A program made the translations under genes and the position numbers. A DNA stretch of 64,000 bases. Origin: Candidatus Kerfeldbacteria bacterium. GTDB lineage: Bacteria; Patescibacteriota; Patescibacteriia; UBA10025; JAHIVO01. Of the stretch, positions 4,455 to 51,659 are shown one piece after another; positions within the stretch are counted from its first letter, which is position 1; each line of letters starts with the position of its first letter. The notes beneath the pieces were generated by a model. That model was not told the origin of the DNA. It did no database searches and saw nothing but the letters and a program-made list of their open reading frames with translations. The stretch is taken from assembly GCA_047946875.1 (NCBI GenBank), contig CP181398.1, positions 1,169,329 to 1,233,328 of the forward strand, in the 5' to 3' direction.

Positions 4455-4581
4455 ATATATTTTATTTAATAATATTACTTATCGTATATCATTGGGTGAA
4501 ATAATGCAATAAAAAAGTTTTATTAGATTATAGGTATATGATAAACTTAATGTAGGAGGTTAAGTTATTAATAGTATAAAT

Positions 4582-4902
4582 ATGGAAGAACAAAACCAAA
4601 AACAACCAACTCAGCAGCAATCAGTACTGCAGTCCGAGGAACACAGAAAAGGAAAAATTAATTTTTCACAAGCATTCTCCAAGTTAAGTAAATATTCTAA
4701 AAGATTTTTTATTGTTTGTGAATTATTACTTGCTATAGTTGTAATATTATACTTAATGTATGAATATACCCCCTCCTGGTCTGGTTGGGTTGAATTTGTT
4801 CTGCTGTCGTATTTTTTATTTATTGTAAATATTATATATTTAATAGCAATTATTATTTTTCTCTTAACACATAAAAATTATAATGGATTGTGTGTGTGGT
4901 AG
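4582..4902 (+). CDS. small membrane protein; paralog of the 5520 gene (shared MEEQNQK N-terminus)
   Basis: Two predicted TM segments. Shares an upstream sequence motif with the 5207 gene. Confidence 0.5.
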   Translation: MEEQNQKQPTQQQSVLQSEEHRKGKINFSQAFSKLSKYSKRFFIVCELLLAIVVILYLMYEYTPSWSGWVEFVLLSYFLFIVNIIYLIAIIIFLLTHKNYNGLCVW

Positions 4903-5110: not shown

Positions 5111-5206
5111 TGCGGGACAAGCCAATCTCAAAATCATTGAGGTTTTATTGGATTTTGGGTATATGGTAGACTTAATATAGGAATTTAAGTTATTAATAGT
5201 ATAAAT

Positions 5207-5509
5207 ATGAATTTAGGTACAACAAACATAATTTTTATAATTATATTATCATTACTTTCGATAGTTTTGGTTATATATATAGCATATTTATTTTTTAGAG
5301 TTAAAAAAGATGATAATAATAATCAAAAGACACTATATAGGTTTTTGAATTATAAACAAGTTATTACAATTGTTGTAATAGTATTGTTGGCCTTCACAAT
5401 AACAAAGGTGTCTAAAAGTTGGGAAAATTTTATATTACCATTTTATCTTCTTATTATTTTAATAATATTAGGAGTAATAGTAATTCCAAAATTATCAAAT
5501 AAAAAATAA
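5207..5509 (+). CDS. small membrane protein (100 aa)
   Basis: Two hydrophobic helices. Conserved upstream motif gattttgggtatatggtagactta. Confidence 0.5.
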   Translation: MNLGTTNIIFIIILSLLSIVLVIYIAYLFFRVKKDDNNNQKTLYRFLNYKQVITIVVIVLLAFTITKVSKSWENFILPFYLLIILIILGVIVIPKLSNKK

Positions 5510-5951: not shown

Positions 5952-6128
5952 AACAAAACTTTTTAAAGATTGGAAATTTTGGGTGTGGGTAATAATTGTC
6001 CTATTGGTTGCTGCTTTTATTATATATAGTAGTTGATAATTATAATGCCACAAAAGGATTTAATTAAAGTATATTAAAAAATTCTGCTTATCGGCAGGCA
6101 GGCACCTTAAGAGGCGGGATTTTTTGAT

Positions 6129-6236
6129 TGGGGTCGGATAGCCCGTCCGCCACAGCTTCGCCGTAGGCGTGCCGGGCGGGCTGTTTACCCCGTCCTTCAT
6201 GGAAGGCGGGGTAAATTTTAGAACTTATTTATTAAG
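6129..6236 (-). pseudogene. tRNA-His-derived repeat copy carrying two GC-rich hairpin insertions
   Basis: tggggtcggatagc..ctgtttacc..ttagaacttattta matches the uninterrupted copy at 11281-11322. This copy has extra 38-nt (6143-6180) and 22-nt (6190-6211) GC hairpins. Confidence 0.6.
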
Positions 6237-6250
6237 AGGTGTTTTATTAT

Positions 6251-7048
6251 TTATTTTTTCAATTCAACTACATCAAGTGTGCGATTATAAATCGATGCTG
6301 TCTGGCCGGCATCAACATTCCAGCCAACCTGAAAAGTATGTGATCCAGCAGTAACATCTACCAAGGCATTGAAGGCCATGTTAAATGGACCGCCGGAAGA
6401 AGCGGCAGTTCCTCTTCTAATGGTGTGATCAACTATTGTCCCATCAACAATTAAAAAAGTCCTGGCTGAAACAAAGTCATTATTAATACTAAATACCCCA
6501 CTGAAATTAATTAATACGGTGCTGGCGCCAGTTGTAACAACAATAGTTTCATCTAAAATATCATAATTTGGGGAATTTTGTGTTGTTGTATCCGTAGTTG
6601 TTCCATAAGCTTCACTCGTTTGAGTTATGGCGCCGGCTGCAATATTGGTAGATGTTACTATCCCTGTCCCCATCAAACTTCCCACCGTCAATGATCCGAT
6701 TACTTCCATATTATCATTTACGATAAATGGCATGGTATCACTTGTCCCAGCTGTAGCACCACGCCAAACACGACCGTCTATTCTTACATTATCTCCAAAG
6801 GTCACAGGGTTATCAACACTATTGGTTGTTGTATCGTTTACAATAGAGCCGTTAAAGTAAGTTACTCCTCCAATATCCTGTTCCCCGATCATAATTGAAC
6901 GCATTTTCATAGTTCCATCAACTTGATAAATATCTCCTTCCGGTCCAAATTGGGAGGTGACATTGTGTGTGGCCGCAGCATTTACAATCCCCACCGTTAA
7001 TGCGATGGAAATGATCACTACCAACGATGTTATTAGTTTTTTGTTCAT
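6251..7048 (-). CDS. secreted surface protein, family member A (shares its N-terminal module with the 15173 and 16160 genes)
   Basis: Signal peptide MNKKLITSLVVIISIALTVGIVNA. About 130 aa are near-identical to paralogs B and C (HNVTSQFGPEGDI.QVDGTMKMRS...). The C-terminus is unique. Confidence 0.7.
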   Translation of the reverse strand: MNKKLITSLVVIISIALTVGIVNAAATHNVTSQFGPEGDIYQVDGTMKMRSIMIGEQDIGGVTYFNGSIVNDTTTNSVDNPVTFGDNVRIDGRVWRGATAGTSDTMPFIVNDNMEVIGSLTVGSLMGTGIVTSTNIAAGAITQTSEAYGTTTDTTTQNSPNYDILDETIVVTTGASTVLINFSGVFSINNDFVSARTFLIVDGTIVDHTIRRGTAASSGGPFNMAFNALVDVTAGSHTFQVGWNVDAGQTASIYNRTLDVVELKK

Positions 7049-8954: not shown

Positions 8955-9099
8955 AGTATTATATGAAAATTATTAGATATCCAATGTTCACTTATTATTA
9001 TAGCTAATATTAGTAGATACTTAAAGGGGCTGAAATTTTATTAGATTTTGGGTATATGGTAGACTTACTTTGGTAGGTTATATTATTAAGATATTTATT

Positions 9100-10212
9100 A
9101 TGAAAAATAAAACAATATTTATTGGATTTATAATAGGTGTAGGTATTTTACTATTGGCTGTGATTGGGAATTATTTTAGTAAGGATAATATGACGAAGGA
9201 TGAAGGTATTTTTTCAAATGTTGTCCAAGATAACATAATACAAAGTAACATTAATATATTAGAGGTATCAGATGTGCCAGAAGACTGTGATGTTGTTTTT
9301 ACCCATCGGTTTACAGATATTACAAAAATCAATGCTATCCAGCCAATTGGCTCTATCACCGGCGCTTCTCCTGGTCGTAGTTATTTGGATATTAAAGAAG
9401 GAGAAACTGTCCCGGTATACGCCCCAATGGATGCCACATTAAAATTTATTGCATATTCATATCGTGGCCCAGAGGCGCCTTACCCAGAATATGGTTTTAG
9501 TTTTGATACTGGTTGTGGGGTAACTTTTATGTTAGATCATTTGGACACAATATCGGATGAATTAAAGCAATATGCGCCTATTGAGCCTTCACTAGCAACT
9601 GACGGTACTAATAATCTTTCGGTTGAGGTTGAGGCGGGAACACTTCTGGGATATACTGATGGAACAGAACAGGCTAAAACTTTTGACTTTTTGGTAATAG
9701 ATAAAAATACTGACGTTTTTCATATTAATCCGGAACGATGGGACTGGGATCAAGCGTTGCATGCTGTCTGTCCGTATGATCTATATACAGATGATTTGAA
9801 AAGTGAGTATTATGAAAAAATTGGGACATATTATTACACAGGATTTGTAAAAGCAGAGAGCTGTGGTAATCCATCATACGATATTGTTGGAACAATTTCC
9901 GGTGGGTGGTTTTTGGGAGAAAACGATACGATGATGACTGGTGAGTTTATGACAATTGGCGAGGAGGGTGGTAATGTGTACACAATTGTCAAAAATAATC
10001 TGGAAGATGTAATAATACGCGTGGATGATTACTGGACAGAAGTCATGCCAAAAGATGTTAAGGTTGGGAGTTCAGCATGCTATTTTGACAACAACACAGA
10101 TACTTGGATGTTTTTGAATTTAGTAAGTGAAGAAACCATCCAGCTTGCAAATGGAAATGGGAATTGTCCTGTAGAGTTTCCAGATTCTAATATAAAGATT
10201 TATTCGAGATAG
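9100..10212 (+). CDS. membrane-anchored secreted protein
   Basis: ATG at 9100 (the ORF track's 9070 is a TTG). N-terminal TM segment. No family recognised. Confidence 0.55.
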   Translation: MKNKTIFIGFIIGVGILLLAVIGNYFSKDNMTKDEGIFSNVVQDNIIQSNINILEVSDVPEDCDVVFTHRFTDITKINAIQPIGSITGASPGRSYLDIKEGETVPVYAPMDATLKFIAYSYRGPEAPYPEYGFSFDTGCGVTFMLDHLDTISDELKQYAPIEPSLATDGTNNLSVEVEAGTLLGYTDGTEQAKTFDFLVIDKNTDVFHINPERWDWDQALHAVCPYDLYTDDLKSEYYEKIGTYYYTGFVKAESCGNPSYDIVGTISGGWFLGENDTMMTGEFMTIGEEGGNVYTIVKNNLEDVIIRVDDYWTEVMPKDVKVGSSACYFDNNTDTWMFLNLVSEETIQLANGNGNCPVEFPDSNIKIYSR

Positions 10213-10313
10213 TCTTTATTGGGGTCCCTATCGGTCGGTTAATTTAACTAACCTGATGAAGGTTTTGGGTGATTTTAGGTATATGGTAGGAATATTAAAG
10301 CAAGCCTCAGTAT

Positions 10314-11099: not shown

Positions 11100-11165
11100 T
11101 AATTTAAGTATACCAAAAACGACCCTAATAACATATCTATAGGGTAACTTTTATAAAATGGGTGG

Positions 11166-11300
11166 TTAGACCTGCCTACCGGCAGGCAGGGGGAATTACG
11201 CGTCGCCTATTGGCTCGCTTCTACCCGTCCGATTCCCATTTTATCCCATATCAAAAAAAGTTCCACCATATAAATATGATAAAACTTTTTCTGGGGTCGG
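11166..11300. repeat. GC-containing repeat copy X1 (paired with 11735-11892), ending in a degenerate tRNA-His 3' end
   Basis: Shares gcaggcagg..cgcgtcgcc..ctcgcttcta.ccgt.cgattcc.attttr.cccatatcaaaaaaa..tttttctggggt with X2. Confidence 0.6.
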
Positions 11301-11425
11301 ATAGCTGTTTATCTTAGAACTTATTTAATGGATGGATTGGAGGTATATGGAGTGGTTAATAACATAGTTTAGTAGTTTGTGATATAATTAATACATAAAA
11401 AAGAATTAATATTAATTTTATTTAT

Positions 11426-11656: not shown

Positions 11657-11734
11657 TTTTTGAATGATTCAAGACCAAATTATAGATAGTTACCAAAAAT
11701 ACCTCTTAATATTAAAGGCGTTTTTAGAAAAGCC

Positions 11735-11892
11735 GGCAGGGAGAATTTCGCGTCGCCAAAGGCTCCTTGTCCTGGGTAGCGACCCCGCGGTGCGGGGTCG
11801 ACTCTTGCCTTCGTCTCGCTTCTATCCGTTCGATTCCTATTTTGCCCCATATCAAAAAAATTTCATCATCTACAAGGGATAATAAAATTTTT
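11735..11892. repeat. repeat copy X2 directly abutting the tRNA-His 3' end
   Basis: Homologous to 11166-11300. Carries an extra GC hairpin segment (gggtagcgaccccgcggtgcggggtcgac). Confidence 0.6.
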
Positions 11893-11968
11893 CTGGGGTG
11901 GCTAGAGGGAATCGAACCCTCATAGCTGGTTCCACAAACCAGTGCACTAACCGTTGTGCTATAGCCAC
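11893..11968 (-). tRNA. tRNA-His (GUG), with G-1 and 3' CCA encoded
   Basis: Cloverleaf by eye. Anticodon loop TTGTGGA. G-1 is present. Confidence 0.85.
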
Positions 11969-15172: not shown

Positions 15173-16045
15173 TTAGTATATTGCCAGCATAAATACACCA
15201 TCGGCAGGATTTTCATCTTTATCATGTTCCCAAACTAAAACGGTATTTGGATCAGATGCATGAGGAGCAGCGCCAATTAATCTAATAGCAACAGCACCGC
15301 CTGTACCACTTGGAGTAGCGATGTAAGCTCTAGTTGGTGTACCTGAACCATTATTTACAGCAAAATTGAAAGTTACTTCATATCTACCATTGCCAGTATT
15401 TGTGGCAGCAGTAGCATTATATCCACTAGTTAACGTACCTCCTGAACTAACATAGGCCCATCCTTTTAATGCTCCTTCAGCAGATACGGCCTGGGTGATG
15501 TTACCAGTAGTAGTGACTGTGTCAATACTAAGATCGGCAGTTGAGGATATATCGCTTCCAGTGATGGTTCCATCGACAATTTTAGCTGAGGTAATTGCAT
15601 TATCAGCAATGTCAGCGGTGGCAATTGTAGCATCAGTAATATTGTCAGATGTTACTATCCCAGTACCAAGTAAACTTGCTACTGTTAATGATCCAGTAAC
15701 TTCCATATTGTCATTGACAATAAATGGCATTGAATCTGCAGTACCAGCTGTTGCTCCGCGAAAAACACGTCCATCTATACGGACGTTATCACCAAAAGTA
15801 ACGGGATTGTCTACTCCGGCGTTTGTTGTGGTATTGATTATAGATCCATTGAAGTAGGTTACTCCACCTACACCCTGTTCACCGATCATCGTTGATCTCA
15901 TTTTCATTGTCCCATCTACTTGAAATATGTCTCCTTCTGGTCCAAATTGTGAAGTGACATTGTGACTAGTTGCAGCATTGACTATCCCAGCTGTCAAAGC
16001 AATAGAAGCAACTACCACTACGAGGGTTAAAAGCTTTTTTTTCAT
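15173..16045 (-). CDS. secreted surface protein, family member B
   Basis: The N-terminal 150 aa are near-identical to the 16160 and 6251 genes. ITDATIATADIADNAITSAKIVDGTITGSDI repeats. Unique C-terminus. Confidence 0.7.
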   Translation of the reverse strand: MKKKLLTLVVVVASIALTAGIVNAATSHNVTSQFGPEGDIFQVDGTMKMRSTMIGEQGVGGVTYFNGSIINTTTNAGVDNPVTFGDNVRIDGRVFRGATAGTADSMPFIVNDNMEVTGSLTVASLLGTGIVTSDNITDATIATADIADNAITSAKIVDGTITGSDISSTADLSIDTVTTTGNITQAVSAEGALKGWAYVSSGGTLTSGYNATAATNTGNGRYEVTFNFAVNNGSGTPTRAYIATPSGTGGAVAIRLIGAAPHASDPNTVLVWEHDKDENPADGVFMLAIY

Positions 16046-16159: not shown

Positions 16160-17077
16160 TTACATTTCGTAAATTATAAAACTAAATGAAGTTTGGCCAG
16201 CTGACCCGGTAGATTCGTCTACAAAATCAACAGTAAAATGATCATTTACGCTATTTGTAGCCGGAATAAATCCAGAATTTATCGGTGTAACAACCGCTAC
16301 ATGAGTAAGATAAGAATAAGTTACCCCAGTAATAGTAATTTCATATTGATTACTACCACCGTCCCAGGAACAAGCTATGTTACTGGTACCACCTCTATCA
16401 GAGCCATCTGAATTACAATAACCATAGGCAATAGGCAGATTGGCACCGCCCGTACCATTGATCTTGTCAGGTGTTATAGCGTCATCAGCTACATCTGCTG
16501 TAGCAATAGTTCCGTCTGTAATTTTTGAACTAATTATTGAGTTACTGGCTAAATCTCCAGATACAATAGTTCCGTCTGTAATTTTAGCTGAGGTAATAGC
16601 ATCATCATCAATTTTTGCAGTTGTAATTACGCTATCAGCTATGTCTGCTGTAGCTATAGTAGCGTCAGTAATATTGTCAGATGTTACTATCCCGGTACCA
16701 AGTAAACTTGCTACTGTTAATGATCCAGTAACTTCCATATTGTCGTTGACGATAAAAGGTTGAGTGTCTCCTGTTCCGGCAGTTGCTCCGCGAAAAACAC
16801 GTCCGTCAATACGAACATTATCACCAAAAGTTACGGGATTGTCTACACCGGAGTTTGTAGTGGCATTGATTATAGATCCATTGAAGTAAGTTACTCCACC
16901 AACACCTTGTTCACCGATCATAACTGATCTCATGTTCATTGTTCCATCTACTTGAAATATGTCTCCTTCTGGTCCAAATTGTGAAGTGACATTGTGACTA
17001 GTTGCTGCGTTGACTATCCCAGCTGTCAAAGCAATAGAAGCAACTACCACTACGAGGGTTAAAAGCTTTTTTTTCAT
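16160..17077 (-). CDS. secreted surface protein, family member C
   Basis: The 5' ~390 nt are nearly identical at DNA level to the 15173 gene. More ITxAKIxDGTI repeats. Distinct Cys-containing C-terminal domain. Confidence 0.7.
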   Translation of the reverse strand: MKKKLLTLVVVVASIALTAGIVNAATSHNVTSQFGPEGDIFQVDGTMNMRSVMIGEQGVGGVTYFNGSIINATTNSGVDNPVTFGDNVRIDGRVFRGATAGTGDTQPFIVNDNMEVTGSLTVASLLGTGIVTSDNITDATIATADIADSVITTAKIDDDAITSAKITDGTIVSGDLASNSIISSKITDGTIATADVADDAITPDKINGTGGANLPIAYGYCNSDGSDRGGTSNIACSWDGGSNQYEITITGVTYSYLTHVAVVTPINSGFIPATNSVNDHFTVDFVDESTGSAGQTSFSFIIYEM

Positions 17078-18431: not shown

Positions 18432-18575
18432 TGGTGGGACGTAGAGGATTTGAACCTCTGACCGTTTGCTTCCCGCCTTTCGGACGGGACAAGTAAGAGG
18501 CAACTTTATCCCGCTAAGAATTGGCGGGATGCTCTACTTTACCCCGCCTATTAAAGGCGGGGCGAGCTGAGCTAA
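18432..18575 (-). pseudogene. 5'-truncated tRNA-Lys copy interrupted by three GC-rich hairpin insertions
   Basis: Matches tRNA-Lys positions 9-76 exactly except for three inserts. One sits in the D-loop (18537-18565), one after the D-stem (18505-18529) and one between anticodon-loop positions 37 and 38 (18472-18493). Confidence 0.7.
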
Positions 18576-18803
18576 TTTATTTTTATATTGATGATTTTTC
18601 TTTTTTAGCCACAATTCGTGCCTCCTTGCCTCTTTATAAGAATGGTGTTTTTTAAAATATACAAGTTTAAATAGTTTATATTTTGAACTGCTGTTGAGTT
18701 TTCCTTGGTTGTGTTCGTGAATACGTTTCCAAGGTTGTATAGAAATACCACAATAATATTTATTAAACTTATTACTATATATTAAGTACGTATAAACATT
18801 CAT
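18534..18803 (-). CDS. small GIY-YIG nuclease (YazA/YhbQ-like)
   Basis: Translation MNVYTYLIYSNKFNKYYCGISIQPWKRIHEHNQG has the GIY-YIG motifs. The C-terminal 14 codons read through the tRNA-Lys pseudo-copy. Confidence 0.65.
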   Translation of the reverse strand: MNVYTYLIYSNKFNKYYCGISIQPWKRIHEHNQGKLNSSSKYKLFKLVYFKKHHSYKEARRHELWLKKKNHQYKNKLAQLAPPLIGGVK

Positions 18804-18842: not shown

Positions 18843-18921
18843 TGGTGGGACGTAGAGGATTTGAACCTCTGACCGTTTGCTTAAGAGGCAACTGCTCTAC
18901 CAAGCTGAGCTAACGTCCCGC
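18843..18921 (-). tRNA. tRNA-Lys (CUU), CCA encoded
   Basis: Anticodon loop CTCTTAA. Clean cloverleaf. Confidence 0.85.
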
Positions 18922-19020
18922 GTCGATATAATATTTTTGGTTACGTTTTCAGCTTTCGCTGCTAATTCCACCGCTCATATCATTTCTCCTTTCCTCGCAG
19001 AACGGTATCGTTCAGCTCGG
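18922..19020 (-). promoter_or_regulatory. conserved tRNA-upstream element (copy L1)
   Basis: Near-identical to 19362-19470 and homologous to 46160, 47269 and 48647 (cgtcga.ata.t.tttt.ggtt.cgttt...atttctcct..c). Confidence 0.5.
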
Positions 19021-19038
19021 TATTATTTATTATAGGAA

Positions 19039-19204
19039 TGGTACCCTCGAGAGCCCCGCTTTGAGCGGGATCTTCGAGAATCTCCGCCCAAGGCGGATGC
19101 GCCTATGGCGCAGAACCTTAAGTTTAAAAGATTGTTTATCCACGGCTCCCGCCCGCAACGCTAAAGCGTAGCTTTGGCGGGCGTGGTAGAAGGCCGTTGT
19201 TCCC
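19039..19204 (-). pseudogene. 5'-truncated tRNA-Arg copy with multiple GC-rich hairpin insertions; ends CGAGGGTACCA
   Basis: Segments GGAACAACGGCCTTCTA / AGCCGTGGATA / CTCTCGAGGGTACCA match tRNA-Arg. Inserts include a 39-nt hairpin exactly at position 37/38. Confidence 0.6.
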
Positions 19205-19220
19205 CGTCTGCCATCGCCAA

Positions 19221-19292
19221 TACCCTCGAGAGGAATCGAACCTCTATCCACGGCTTAGAAGGCCGTTGTTCTATCCGTTGAACTACAAGGGC
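19221..19292 (-). tRNA. tRNA-Arg (UCU), no CCA encoded, G1-U72 wobble
   Basis: Anticodon loop CTTCTAA. Its first 12 nt are duplicated upstream at 19346-19357 around a GC-rich element. Confidence 0.7.
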
Positions 19293-19345
19293 AATGGCAA
19301 TGGCGGGCAGGTATCCGTTGTCAGGCAGAGCCTGATCCGGCTTTG
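19293..19345. repeat. GC-rich palindromic element between the tRNA-Arg 5' end and an upstream duplicate of that end; member of the REP-like family CCGGCAKAGCCGGATCAGGCTCTRCCTG
   Basis: caggcagagcctgatccggctttgccgg is flanked by direct repeats (a)actacaagggc. Confidence 0.6.
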
Positions 19346-19361
19346 CCGGAAACTACAAGGG

Positions 19362-19470
19362 CGCGTCTAAATAATATTTTTGGTTACGTTTTCAGCTTTC
19401 GCTGCTAACTCCACCATTCATATCATTTCTCCTTTCCCCGCAGAACGGTATCGTTCAGCTCAATGTTATT
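19362..19470 (-). promoter_or_regulatory. conserved tRNA-upstream element (copy L2)
   Basis: About 95 percent identical to L1. Confidence 0.5.
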
Positions 19471-19515
19471 AAATAATATTTCGAATATTAGCAATAAAAA
19501 CTATTTAAGTCAATG

Positions 19516-20397
19516 CTAATTGCTGGTATATAGTTTGGTTGTGGTAATAAAGTTATGACCAAGTATTGATTGGATAGATTTGATGTCATAGCCCTGTTTT
19601 TTTAAATGAACTGCATATGCTTGGCGGAGTTTTTCGGGAGTAATATTATTACCTAGATTTGTTTTTTTTGAATATTTTTTTATGATTCTTTGGATGGTAC
19701 GTGGAGTTAGTTGATAAGTTTCTTTTTTAACAGTACTTAGTTGTCTTTTCTTAGCTTTATCATGCCTAATAAATAATGCATTAAATTTATCATTTCTTAT
19801 TTTTAGATATTCATGGACTGCATAACTAGCTTGATTTGATAAATTTAGAGAACGAGATTTTTTCTTACGTAAAATATTGATTGAGTTTGTACTGAAGTTT
19901 ATGTTTTCTTTTTTTAATGAAGCAAGCTCTGATACTTTGAGACCAGAGCATAACAGGAGTTCTAAGATTGCTTTGTCTCTTTTTTGGATAATCCCAGGAT
20001 TTTTTTCATGCAAGGGAGAAGATAATAGTAGATCGATATCTGATTCTTCGAGTGGTTTATAATGTTTTTTTATTTGCTTTTTAAGAACAATTTCCTTGAA
20101 TGGCAATGAATGAATATTTTTCTTCTTTAAATATTCCAAAAAGGATCTTAGGGCTATTAAATGATAGTTTTGTGTATTTATTTTTAATAACTCTTTTTTT
20201 TGATTACGTATAGTGCTTAAGTAGTTTTTGAATAAATCAATTTTTTCTTTGGTAATATCTGAAGCTTGCCTAATGTTGGATTGATTAAAAAAACGGTGAA
20301 GGTAGAAACTATAGTTATTTACAGTTTGTTTCGTAGTTTTTTTCTTTTGCTGAAGATATTCTAAGAAATTATTTAAATTTTTATTAATGTCATTCAT
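19516..20397 (-). CDS. tyrosine recombinase / phage-type integrase
   Basis: C-terminal catalytic region LRQAYAVHL...GYD..SIQSILGH....TTKLYT (R, H-x-x-R, Y). Confidence 0.8.
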   Translation of the reverse strand: MNDINKNLNNFLEYLQQKKKTTKQTVNNYSFYLHRFFNQSNIRQASDITKEKIDLFKNYLSTIRNQKKELLKINTQNYHLIALRSFLEYLKKKNIHSLPFKEIVLKKQIKKHYKPLEESDIDLLLSSPLHEKNPGIIQKRDKAILELLLCSGLKVSELASLKKENINFSTNSINILRKKKSRSLNLSNQASYAVHEYLKIRNDKFNALFIRHDKAKKRQLSTVKKETYQLTPRTIQRIIKKYSKKTNLGNNITPEKLRQAYAVHLKKQGYDIKSIQSILGHNFITTTKLYTSN

Positions 20398-29248: not shown

Positions 29249-29278
29249 TCCGGCAGAGCCGGATCAGGCTCTGCCTGA
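29249..29278. repeat. GC-rich palindromic REP-like element (family CCGGCAKAGCCGGATCAGGCTCTRCCTG)
   Basis: ggcagagcc-ggatca-ggctctgcc perfect 9-bp arms. Copies also at 34086-34118 (inverted) and 19318-19345. Confidence 0.65.
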
Positions 29279-34085: not shown

Positions 34086-34118
34086 TTCAGGTAGAGCCTG
34101 ATCCGGCTATGCCGGAAA
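34086..34118. repeat. REP-like GC-rich element (inverted copy of the 29249 family)
   Basis: caggtagagcctgatccggctatgccgg. Confidence 0.6.
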
Positions 34119-45287: not shown

Positions 45288-45318
45288 ATGCAGTTACAGT
45301 AATTAATTTTTTTTAAAT

Positions 45319-45362
45319 TGCCGCGAGCGGCCCCGCCTTGGCGGGATTTCGTCACTCCGTGT
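45319..45362 (-). pseudogene. degenerate 3' fragment of tRNA-Leu(UAA) carrying a GC hairpin
   Basis: CCGCTCGCGGCA versus the tRNA 3' end CCCGCGGCA. Adjacent hairpin ccccgccttggcgggg. Confidence 0.45.
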
Positions 45363-45989: not shown

Positions 45990-46021
45990 TGGAGCGGCAA
46001 ATTCCGCTGAGCGGGATGAGC
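45990..46021 (-). pseudogene. degenerate 3' fragment of tRNA-Gly(GCC) with a GC hairpin
   Basis: tggagcggcaaa is identical to the tRNA 3' end, then attccgctgagcggga hairpin. Confidence 0.5.
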
Positions 46022-46082: not shown

Positions 46083-46159
46083 TGGAGCGGCAAACCGGAC
46101 TCGAACCGGCGACCTTTTCCTTGGCAAGGAAACGCTCTAGCCAACTGAGCTACTGCCGC
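46083..46159 (-). tRNA. tRNA-Gly (GCC), CCA encoded
   Basis: Anticodon loop TTGCCAA. Confidence 0.85.
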
Positions 46160-46262
46160 GCGTCGAAATAGTTTTTCTGGCTCCGTTTCCAATCAAGATT
46201 GAAAACTGCACCATTTACACTATTTCTCCTTCTCCTCGTCCCGAACTGCGGGACTCGGTAAA
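46160..46262 (-). promoter_or_regulatory. conserved tRNA-upstream element (copy L3)
   Basis: gcgtcgaaatagtttttctggctccgtttccaatcaagattgaaaactgcacc...ctcgtcccgaactgcgggactcgg. About 90 percent identical to 47269-47372. Confidence 0.55.
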
Positions 46263-47193: not shown

Positions 47194-47268
47194 TGGAGCG
47201 GGTAAGGGGAATCGAACCCCTGTTTTCAGGTTGGAAACCTGACATAATAGCCATTATACGATACCCGC
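47194..47268 (-). tRNA. tRNA-Gly (UCC), CCA encoded
   Basis: Anticodon loop TTTCCAA. Confidence 0.85.
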
Positions 47269-47372
47269 GCGCGTCGAAATAGTATTTCTGGTTCCGTTTC
47301 CAATTAAGATTGAAAACTGCACCCTATGCACTATTTCTCCTTTTCTCGTCCCGCACTGCGGGACTCGGTTGA
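47269..47372 (-). promoter_or_regulatory. conserved tRNA-upstream element (copy L4)
   Basis: See L3. Confidence 0.55.
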
Positions 47373-48293: not shown

Positions 48294-48321
48294 AGATATT
48301 GTTTCTAAACAGTGTTGGGAT

Positions 48322-48363
48322 GGCGAGACTCGAACTCGCGACCCCTCGCTCCCAAAGCGAGTG
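48322..48363 (-). pseudogene. partial duplicate of the tRNA-Pro 3' half
   Basis: 42 nt identical to 48397-48438 of tRNA-Pro. Confidence 0.7.
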
Positions 48364-48461: not shown

Positions 48462-48519
48462 ACACAGATGTATTACTAACTATTTTATTTTCAAGGTAAT
48501 GATTTTATTGGAAACTGCG

Positions 48520-48549
48520 CCTGCCTGCCGGTAGGCAGGCTACACCCCG
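48520..48549. repeat. GC-rich palindrome (cctgcctgccggtaggcagg) followed by a 10-nt duplicate of the tRNA-Pro 5' end
   Basis: Same palindrome family as 11171-11190 and 6087-6103. Confidence 0.55.
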
Positions 48550-48574: not shown

Positions 48575-48646
48575 TGCCGCGGGGCGGAATCGAACCACCG
48601 ACGCAAGGATTTTCAGTCCTTCGCTCTACCCCTGAGCTACCGCGGC
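48575..48646 (-). tRNA. tRNA-Phe (GAA), no CCA encoded
   Basis: Anticodon loop CTGAAAA. Confidence 0.85.
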
Positions 48647-48745
48647 GCGTCGAAATGATACTTCAGGTTCCGTTTCCAACTGAAGTTGAAAACTGCACTC
48701 TTTATATCATTTCTCCTCTCCTCAATGAAGCTACGCTTCCTTTCG
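48647..48745 (-). promoter_or_regulatory. conserved tRNA-upstream element (copy L5)
   Basis: gcgtcgaaatgatacttcaggttccgtttccaactgaagttgaaaactgcac...atttctcct. Confidence 0.5.
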
Positions 48746-48835: not shown

Positions 48836-48899
48836 ATAAATTGTTAATTGTTATTTGTAAATGTTTTAAATATATCTGTATTCTAGGAGTTGATCAAAT

Positions 48900-48989
48900 G
48901 TCGCGCTCCCCGCCCGTACCGAACGGGTACGTTCGGGCGGGTAACTTCATCCCGCCTGTTCTAGGCGGGGCAAGCTGAGCTAATCGCCC
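48900..48989 (-). pseudogene. degenerate 5' copy of tRNA-Ile carrying two GC-rich hairpin insertions
   Basis: GGGCGATTAGCTCAGC [hairpin] ATGAAGTTA [hairpin] AGCGCGAC. The first insert is homologous to insert 1 of the tRNA-Lys pseudo-copy. Confidence 0.55.
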
Positions 48990-50950: not shown

Positions 50951-50980
50951 ATTTTATAGGTATTTTAAATATATGTCAAG
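50951..50980 (-). promoter_or_regulatory. candidate 16S promoter (TTGACA-N18-TAAAAT)
   Basis: Read on the minus strand. Overlaps the trmD stop. Confidence 0.5.
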
Positions 50981-51659
50981 CTTTTTTACGTATTCTAGAA
51001 TTATTAGTTTTCCAGGCCAAAATATCATTATGATTGCCACTTAATAGTACTTTTGGCACTTTTTGGCCATTAAAATTTTCAGGTCTGGTGTATTGTGGAT
51101 ATTCAATATATTTTTCGTCTTTTGTAAATGTTTCATCTTTTGAAGATTGGTCATCTCCAAGTACTCCAGGTAATAATCTAGTCGTTGCATCAATAATTGT
51201 CATGGCTGGTAATTCTCCTCCGGTCAAAACATAATCTCCTATGGAAATTTCTTCATCAATGTATTTTTTTATTCTTGCATCGTAACCTTCATAACGTCCA
51301 GCAATCAAAATTAGCTGATCATACTTTGTTAATGACTTTGCTTTTTTTTGATCAAACTTTTTTCCTTTAGGAGTTAGTAAGATGATTCTAGATTTCCCGC
51401 CAGAGGCGGGTCCGCCTTTGGAGGATTTTAATCGTTTAATTGACTTTAAACATTTGTATAGAGGTTCTATTTTTAATAACATTCCTGGACCACCACCATA
51501 AGGTTTGTCATCAACAGACTTATGCTTGTCAGTAGCGAAGTTTCTGAAATTATGGATGATAATGTTTATCTTTTTATTTTTTATTGCACGCTTAATAATA
51601 CTTTCTTTAAAGTATGATTCAAAAATATCTGGAAAAATTGTGAGAATGTCGAATTGCAT
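50976..51659 (-). CDS. trmD: tRNA (guanine37-N1)-methyltransferase
   Basis: The sequence is TrmD-like (MQFDILTIFPDIF...PYGGGPGML). Confidence 0.95.
   Translation of the reverse strand: MQFDILTIFPDIFESYFKESIIKRAIKNKKINIIIHNFRNFATDKHKSVDDKPYGGGPGMLLKIEPLYKCLKSIKRLKSSKGGPASGGKSRIILLTPKGKKFDQKKAKSLTKYDQLILIAGRYEGYDARIKKYIDEEISIGDYVLTGGELPAMTIIDATTRLLPGVLGDDQSSKDETFTKDEKYIEYPQYTRPENFNGQKVPKVLLSGNHNDILAWKTNNSRIRKKA

Follow-up and report, generated by a model that had tools for sequence, protein, structure and literature searches.

Short GC-rich palindromes and interrupted tRNA genes are known from several systems. REP elements and BIMEs (PMC3733652) are imperfect GC-rich palindromes of 20-40 nt that occur in multiple copies and in both orientations, are often paired, and show no target-site duplication. 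The units reported here share these properties. They differ in that they carry no terminal tag (CGTC occurs only inside a stem, as CCCGTCC, and GTAG only in the apical part of HP1, the first of the two inserts described below), lie mostly in tRNA-derived DNA and sometimes in genes, have a low copy number per kb, and are not accompanied by a RAYT in the window, by which we mean the whole 64-kb stretch of DNA that was analysed. The Rickettsia palindromic elements (RPEs; see also PMC3733652) resemble our units in that they are inserted in frame in protein genes, and also in RNA genes, of a genome that is reduced and AT-rich. Their length is about 100-150 bp, and that of the units described here about 15-40 nt. 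Mitochondrial GC clusters, double-hairpin elements and repetitive hairpin-forming elements (PMC2800124, PMC4478555) are likewise families of GC hairpins in an AT-rich genome; like our units, they may come in pairs or be nested, and no transposase is known for them. Those elements are organellar, whereas the units reside in bacterial chromosomes and are strongly tied to tRNA copies and GIY-YIG open reading frames (ORFs).

Disruption of tRNA genes is best compared with that in archaea (PMC4090602), in which, as here, one short sequence is found at various non-canonical positions (D-arm, anticodon loop, T-loop) of several tRNA genes within an ultrasmall symbiont lineage. The archaeal cases include multiple non-canonical introns, split tRNAs and intron transposition. 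Unlike archaeal introns with a bulge-helix-bulge motif, the inserts described here are, upon inspection, hairpins complete in themselves that abut the exons directly and form no helix between exon and intron, and their host is bacterial. In addition, an intact uninterrupted copy always adjoins the interrupted one, and there is no evidence of splicing. The group I introns of Patescibacteria tRNAs (bioRxiv 10.1101/2025.07.03.662931) rest on a ribozyme of about 200 nt or more, in contrast to inserts of about 15-40 nt. MITEs, which have terminal inverted repeats and a target-site duplication and typically measure 50-500 bp, also differ, since no duplication was seen at any insert with an empty reference. 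Finally, SegB of phage T4 is a free-standing GIY-YIG homing endonuclease that lies in a tRNA cluster and recognises a T-psi-C stem-loop motif (PMC2330249). The parallel is that Patescibacteria also carry GIY-YIG genes among their tRNA genes, and that the T-loop is the commonest boundary of duplication or insertion in their tRNA copies. Unlike SegB, however, the Patescibacteria proteins have only 80-100 aa and consist of the catalytic domain alone; site-specific cleavage of an allele without the endonuclease, followed by gene conversion, would apply to them only by analogy. The literature that we searched covers REP/CGTC repeats, mitochondrial hairpin elements, archaeal disrupted tRNAs, and the rRNA insertions and tRNA group I introns of the Patescibacteria (CPR), and holds no description of hairpin-riddled tRNA copies in this phylum.

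The window has a GC content of 34% and contains a 16S rRNA gene, 11 tRNA genes and ribosomal protein genes; searches anchored on L19 assign it to the Patescibacteria (CPR). At 6129-6231, a repeat that we refer to as the host repeat is split by two inserts. Along the plus strand, its left block (6129-6142; TGGGGTCGGATAGC) is followed by a GC-rich palindromic insert of 39 nt (HP1; 6143-6181; CCGTCC...GGGCGGGC), by the middle block TGTTTA (6182-6187), by an insert of 28 nt (HP2; 6188-6215; CCCCGTCCTTCATGGAAGGCGGGGTAAA) with the form CCCCGTCC-loop-GGCGGGG-TAAA, and by the right block (6216-6231; TTTTAGAACTTATTTA). Both inserts are assigned to the plus strand and the three blocks to the minus strand, on which the left block reads GCTATCCGACCCCA and resembles the acceptor 3' strand of tRNA-His, while the right block reads TAAATAAGTTCTAAAA and is a decayed T-arm. 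An empty copy, contiguous over its 36 nt (TGGGGTCGGATAGCTGTTTATCTTAGAACTTATTTA), is found at 11292-11327 on the minus strand; HP1 is missing from it at 11305/11306 and HP2 at 11311/11312. Outside the inserts the filled and empty copies are identical at 35 of 36 positions, the sole difference being T/C. The placement of HP1 is ambiguous by 1 nt (C), and neither insert is bordered by a target-site duplication. HP1 and HP2 are thus clean insertions relative to the empty copy. A preliminary description of this locus had claimed that the same repeat occurs with and without GC hairpins, a claim that holds; it would have been refuted had the copies not been homologous outside the inserts, which is not the case. 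Its details needed correction: the empty copy had been placed at 11281-11322, the inserts had been given 38 and 22 nt, and the repeat, treated as anonymous, is a tRNA relic.

The pairing of these two copies is not expected by chance. The 13-mer GGGGTCGGATAGC occurs just twice in the window, in the filled and in the empty host repeat. Collinear pairs of exact 13-mers on different diagonals and less than 130 nt apart are expected 0.085 times per window (200 block shuffles), against eight in the real window, all of which are true repeats and one of which is the filled/empty pair. The homology extends upstream of both copies in two collinear blocks: TAATT(A/T)AAGTATA, at 6061-6073 and 11100-11112, and the palindrome CTGCyTAyCGGCAGGCAGG, at 6084-6102 and 11171-11190. 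The latter corresponds to a 20-bp palindrome that we call hairpin A, present in a degenerate copy at 6084-6102 (unstranded), as a member of the same duplicated module, and as CCTGCCTACCGGCAGGCAGG at 11171-11190 (unstranded), where it closes a second copy of the tRNA-His trailer. HP1 and HP2 each fold into a stable hairpin (-13.1 kcal/mol as DNA and z -6.4 for HP2), and the empty site has no fold.

The origin of the host repeat was traced to tRNA-His. The intact tRNA-His(GTG) gene lies at 11894-11968 (minus strand) and is followed by a conserved trailer element (11735-11893, minus strand), which has homologues in the trailers of L005, L010 and further members of our comparison set of Patescibacteria loci (L numbers). 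At the end of this trailer, the 3' end of the tRNA is repeated in degenerate form. Alignment on the minus strand revealed that the empty copy, together with about 100 nt after it, duplicates the tRNA-His 3' end and its downstream sequence. This second copy of the downstream sequence (11191-11291, minus strand) is internally deleted and comprises a long AT hairpin together with the 5' portion of the conserved trailer. In L003 and L005, too, this downstream hairpin comes after the 3' end of tRNA-His or after a duplicate of that end. In the alignment of the host repeat with tRNA-His, AAGTTCTAAGATAAACAGCTATCCGACCCCAGAAAAAG is aligned with GGGTTCGATTCCCTCTAGCCACCCCAGAAAAAT. The host repeat is, therefore, the decayed T-arm and acceptor strand of tRNA-His, with HP2 located in the former T-loop region and HP1 at the junction of T-stem and acceptor strand. 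Since the intact tRNA-His, which serves as outgroup, lacks hairpins at the corresponding sites, their absence is the ancestral state, and HP1 and HP2 were gained. Not all GC hairpins are inserts: the one at 11780-11800 belongs to the conserved trailer element.

Some further observations concern this neighbourhood. An ORF of 72 aa (11664-11882, plus strand) is probably spurious; it runs opposite to the conserved tRNA-His trailer and overlaps it. We considered the host-repeat copies as att sites of a 5-kb island located 3' of tRNA-His; this idea was weakened by the lack of an integrase there, and further by L003, which carries homologues of the intervening genes in the same neighbourhood. A hammerhead ribozyme in the tRNA-His leader of L003 was dropped as a candidate, its motif not being conserved in the window.

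Paralogues of both inserts occur elsewhere in the window, in either orientation. HP1 matches a 39-mer at 19148-19186 at 31 of about 40 positions (78% identical), compared with 24.5 +/- 2.2 matches under a null that preserves the palindrome (P ~0.001). An nhmmer profile of these two sequences retrieved only the same two from the window. HP2 clusters with four CCCCGCC-loop-GGCGGGG-TAAA units that split dead copies of tRNA-Lys and tRNA-Ile, and shares the TAAA tail with the inserts in those copies. We distinguish several families of units, present in this genome and across the Patescibacteria, with 2-5 copies per family in 64 kb and lengths of about 15-40 nt: the 39-mers, the CCCCGCC-loop-GGCGGGG-TAAA units, hairpin A (CCTGCCTGCCGGCAGGCAGG), and 15-nt mini-hairpins of the form T-SSSSS-NNN-SSSSS-A (for example TCCGCC-NNN-GGCGGA), which are usually paired. 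The window holds 25 perfect GC-rich hairpins, compared with about 3 in shuffled sequence, and by manual classification about 15 of the 25 fall in tRNA-derived modules. Rfam recognised no family for the hairpins or for the tRNA trailers and leaders, at gathering or at permissive thresholds; in the window it matched only tRNAs and 16S rRNA, with no match to a group I intron.

The mini-hairpins also reach protein genes and ordinary spacers. A 30-nt twin mini-hairpin at 51396-51425 (minus strand) lies in frame within trmD (50976-51659, minus strand) and encodes SSKGGPASGG, at which point six trmD homologues are shorter by 6-10 residues. Another 30-nt twin mini-hairpin, Family C, was found in the spacer between nusA and the H+-PPase gene (29249-29278, unstranded) and in the spacer upstream of tig (34087-34116, unstranded). 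In these two housekeeping-gene spacers its flanks are AAAAATAATTTC and GAAATTAA, and Family C also splits an outer copy of tRNA-Arg.

Several tRNA genes of the window are accompanied by interrupted copies of themselves. The intact tRNA-Lys(CTT) (18843-18919, minus strand) has a partial copy at 18432-18576 (minus strand) that is 100% identical to it over positions 8-76 apart from three hairpin inserts of 25, 25 and 23 nt (18538-18562, 18506-18530 and 18472-18494), located in the D-loop, at 26/27 and at 37/38. The outer, dead copy of tRNA-Arg(TCT) (19040-19364, minus strand) is split at six or more places. Inside it, the intact tRNA-Arg (19220-19293) sits between the stems 19294-19311 and 19203-19219; the remaining inserts are Family C at 19321-19350, the 39-mer 19148-19186 in the anticodon loop (37/38), twin mini-hairpins at 19083-19112 in the T-loop, and a 24-mer at 19054-19077. 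A partial 5' copy of tRNA-Ile (48881-48989, minus strand) has an internal deletion and D-loop hairpin inserts at 48951-48970 and 48908-48943; a 45-nt stretch of it that includes the latter, 36-nt hairpin is 95% identical to L157 6284-6328. Hairpin A (48520-48539) splits a partial 5' copy of tRNA-Pro (48511-48549, minus strand). Downstream of tRNA-Leu(TAA) and of tRNA-Gly(GCC), a GC hairpin is followed by a copy of the respective acceptor 3' strand (45318-45352 and 45990-46017, both minus strand). In silico removal of the inserts yielded an ARAGORN-valid tRNA for the outer tRNA-Arg copy and for the outer copies of L106 and L157. No valid tRNA was restored in this way from the tRNA-Lys copy, which is truncated at its 5' end. 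Separately, an exact 43-nt duplicate of the 3' part of tRNA-Pro, without a hairpin insert, lies 23 nt downstream of that gene (48321-48363).

The comparison set comprised about 160 Patescibacteria loci (1.75 Mb). According to genome and metagenome scans, the nearest public relatives have an L19 identity of 74-80%, the closest reaching 77-80%, and a GC content of 40-51%. Exact-protein look-ups for close relatives returned one short contig only. Many tRNAs in the comparison set have partial copies of themselves alongside, and GC palindromes often split these copies. Hairpin A (CCTGCCTGCCGGCAGGCAGG) had 13 matches in the 1.75 Mb, with 0.00 expected, and TCCGCCnnnGGCGGA occurred 18 times, with 0.2 expected. 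In the five hairpin A insertions for which an intact tRNA serves as comparator, the insert measures exactly 19-20 nt, is free of duplication, and occupies differing positions and tRNA copies. The tRNA-Arg nest is conserved in L004 and L007, including the twin hairpins in the T-loop, and L106 and L157 harbour complete outer tRNA-Val genes of perfect structure, split by hairpins and by a nested inner tRNA-Val. In-frame insertion recurs as well: TCCGCCTCTGGCGGA units encode SASGG in a P-loop kinase-like gene (L078 6990-7004) and SAQGGSASGG in an S1-domain gene (L136 6334-6363). The spread of these units across the phylum, their organisation in multi-copy families and their in-frame presence in genes are direct observations, as are the clean insertion and polarity of HP1 and HP2.

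As a note on their form, the nests (window 19040-19364, minus strand; L004 3400-3835; L007 2490-2935; L106 9228-9471; L157 10742-11000) consist of a GC stem that encloses a complete tRNA and interrupts another, outer copy of that tRNA at 21/22, 38/39 or 56/57. This layout is kept across genera, and some of the outer copies form perfect cloverleaves that include an acceptor stem of their own. We also counted 32 cases in which a tRNA has its own 3' end repeated after it as an exact copy of 13-24 nt, usually past a trailer of 90-230 nt (L003 10527-10709 and 10907-11076, and others in L005, L007, L010, L026, L047, L055, L136 and further loci). These trailers belong to at least four conserved structured sequence families, have no Rfam match, and are complementary in their 5' part to the duplicated T-loop segment.

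Hairpin A calls for caution. A search of IMG/VR returned 48 matches, mostly on contigs of 60-70% GC without tRNAs, and only the low-GC L179 and L204 repeat the arrangement of tRNA copy, hairpin A and GIY-YIG. This low-complexity (CCTG)2CC/GG(CAGG)2 palindrome is not diagnostic alone, and its recurrence could be partly convergent. In L187 (977) and L188 (332 and 4512; IMG/VR 2848964341_000001, a viral contig of 45% GC), hairpin A was seen nested in another palindromic repeat, at the same internal position: CCCCTCTCCTTGGGAGAGGG | GTTGGGGGTGAGG.

Pfam searches detected no RAYT (Y1 / IS200-IS605-type) or other transposase among the about 60 ORFs of the window, a result that concerns the window and not the whole genome. 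What was found is a GIY-YIG nuclease ORF of 89 aa (18534-18803, minus strand; PF01541, E 8e-10) between tRNA-Lys and its interrupted copy. Its frame extends into the tRNA-Lys copy, and the conserved catalytic Glu aligns with Lys. Judging from sequence alone, this gene may be decaying and its product inactive. Homologous ORFs encode 80-100 aa with the catalytic domain only, without a DNA-binding domain, and are UPF0213-like (PDB 1ZG2). Of 18 GIY-YIG ORFs, 15 are no farther than 100 nt from a tRNA and typically separate it from its partial copy, which establishes the linkage between GIY-YIG genes, tRNAs and partial copies. A Xer-like tyrosine recombinase (19516-20397, minus strand) adjoins the tRNA-Arg nest and has a homologue at the same place in L004; its role is not established.

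We propose, as a reading that we favour without regarding it as secure, that HP1 and HP2 are short GC-rich palindromic insertion units and that the spare tRNA copies derive from GIY-YIG cassettes. The units would resemble REP and RPE elements and would be copied, in either orientation, into foldable DNA, with the arms of tRNAs, loop-stem junctions and loops within other palindromes as preferred targets. They would survive only where harmless, that is, in redundant partial tRNA copies, in spacers and in tolerant protein loops, in which TCCGCCNNNGGCGGA translates to Ser-Ala-X-Gly-Gly. The spare copies would flank intact tRNA genes as by-products of tRNA-targeted cassettes, a complete cassette comprising a nuclease ORF of 80-100 aa with a GIY-YIG domain and in some cases an entire replacement tRNA inside the stem of a hairpin. 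Copying would proceed by a break-induced or single-strand hairpin mechanism and not by a RAYT-type transposase; this is inferred, and neither the mobilising step nor the enzyme has been shown. The GIY-YIG nuclease may initiate copying, which is again inferred, its activity and target being untested. Some points speak against this reading. In the absence of a closely related genome, no empty/filled polymorphism was seen at orthologous sites. Hairpin A is of low complexity, and the GIY-YIG proteins have the catalytic domain only. Several hairpins occupy identical positions of outer tRNA copies in different genera; since these positions are shared between genera, such hairpins are old and could be selected structures. 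Furthermore, some outer tRNA copies are structurally perfect and show compensatory differences from the inner tRNA. The preliminary description had regarded the hairpins as discrete insertions of a mobile or templated mini-element. The core of that claim is supported by the polarity, the paralogues, the filled and empty tRNA pairs and the sites in other Patescibacteria. Its remark that the element is only 22-40 nt long, far shorter than classical MITEs, needs the qualification that 20-40 nt has precedent in REP elements of equal size, and the transposase search that it proposed gave, on the window, the negative result reported above.

Other explanations must be weighed against this one. The polarity could be the reverse, with the hairpins predating the duplication of the module and the copy at 11292 having lost both by precise slippage deletion. 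Palindromes are readily deleted in bacteria, and HP1 is flanked by a repeat of 1-2 nt (C/GC). Nevertheless, with a hairpin-free tRNA-His as outgroup, loss demands four events against two for gain, and the flanks of HP2 contain no direct repeat able to produce the observed empty sequence, so we consider this scenario unlikely. Less likely still is that the inserts are classical REP elements moved by a RAYT (TnpA-REP, IS200/IS605-type) encoded elsewhere in the genome. Their size, palindromy, multiple copies, occurrence in both orientations and pairing do resemble REPs and BIMEs (PMC3733652), but the terminal GTAG or CGTC tag is absent, the window ORFs include no RAYT or Y1 transposase, and a position within genes and tRNA copies is atypical for REPs. 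We give equally little credence to the idea that the hairpins arose where they now stand, between convergent genes, as intrinsic terminators or regulatory hairpins. Convergent genes do flank the locus, and HP2 is followed by TAAATTTT. Against this, a terminator scan called neither HP1 nor HP2, canonical terminators with A/T tracts elsewhere in the window look different, paralogous units lie inside dead tRNA copies and trmD, and the sequence-family relationships of both inserts oppose an origin in place.

A more substantial challenge is that the hairpins are selected modules of functional tRNA-like "shell" RNAs, such as processing scaffolds or hairpin-type introns, gained and lost under selection. 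Several facts favour this explanation. Hairpins recur at conserved positions (T-loop, 65/66, 21/22, anticodon loop) in different genera and classes; the outer tRNA-Val genes of L106 and L157 retain a perfect cloverleaf and differ from the inner tRNA in a compensatory manner; the exons of interrupted copies are identical to the adjoining intact tRNA even though tRNAs vary between genomes; and junk is rarely retained in streamlined genomes. However, an intact copy adjoins every interrupted copy that we saw, and ARAGORN in intron mode reported no stand-alone interrupted tRNA, its predictions being only artefacts that overlap intact tRNAs. The copies in the window are also defective: that of tRNA-Lys lacks the 5' acceptor strand, that of tRNA-Arg has mismatches in the T-stem, and that of tRNA-Ile has an internal deletion. 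These units are also present in protein genes and in ordinary spacers, the stems carry G.T and C.A mispairs alike, which by inspection indicates no RNA-strand bias, and the junctions form no bulge-helix-bulge motif. On balance, shell RNAs seem improbable. A bolder version holds that the outer tRNA genes are functional and that the hairpins, even the inner tRNAs, are removed by an unknown bacterial processing or ligation pathway. We find this version hard to credit; if true, it would amount to a hairpin-type class of tRNA mini-introns, with an analogue in the disrupted tRNA genes that ultrasmall archaea possess. That the hairpins serve as structures or act like introns remains possible and is not excluded, given that some hairpins are ancient and conserved in position and that some outer tRNAs look intact.

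Returning to palindromic insertion units as the favoured reading, these findings bear on how such genomes are understood. The units account for the GC islands of an AT-rich, streamlined genome, and phylum-wide, Patescibacteria surround their tRNA genes with partial or nested copies that bear conserved mini-palindromes and are linked to tiny GIY-YIG nucleases. If mobile, the units, at sizes down to 15 nt, would rank with the smallest known insertion units and would offer a tractable system for the spread of palindromes without a dedicated transposase. If the link to the nuclease is causal, it would represent a cellular counterpart of the SegB-type homing in phage tRNA clusters. In annotation, the inserts can also mask tRNA genes or break them into fragments, and they extend proteins by Ser-Ala-X-Gly-Gly peptides.

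Some repeated sequences of the window were recorded apart from the hairpins. A conserved leader of 78-114 nt lies directly 5' of five tRNA genes (18917-19032, 19360-19475, 46157-46234, 47268-47345 and 48644-48721); it has no Rfam match, is preceded in two of the five by a GTCCCGCAGTGCGGGAC hairpin, and is possibly a promoter or leader RNA. A repeated region of about 68 nt (GTTTTATTAGATTTTGGGTATATGGTAGACTT...) was found upstream of several small membrane-protein genes (4515-4584, 5140-5209, 9033-9102 and 10260-10303) and is likely a shared promoter and leader. Lastly, three paralogous secreted or membrane proteins (6251-7048, 15173-16045 and 16160-17077, minus strand), without a Pfam match, are 66-85% identical to each other in pairwise comparison over their aligned parts and have homologues in L003 and L012.
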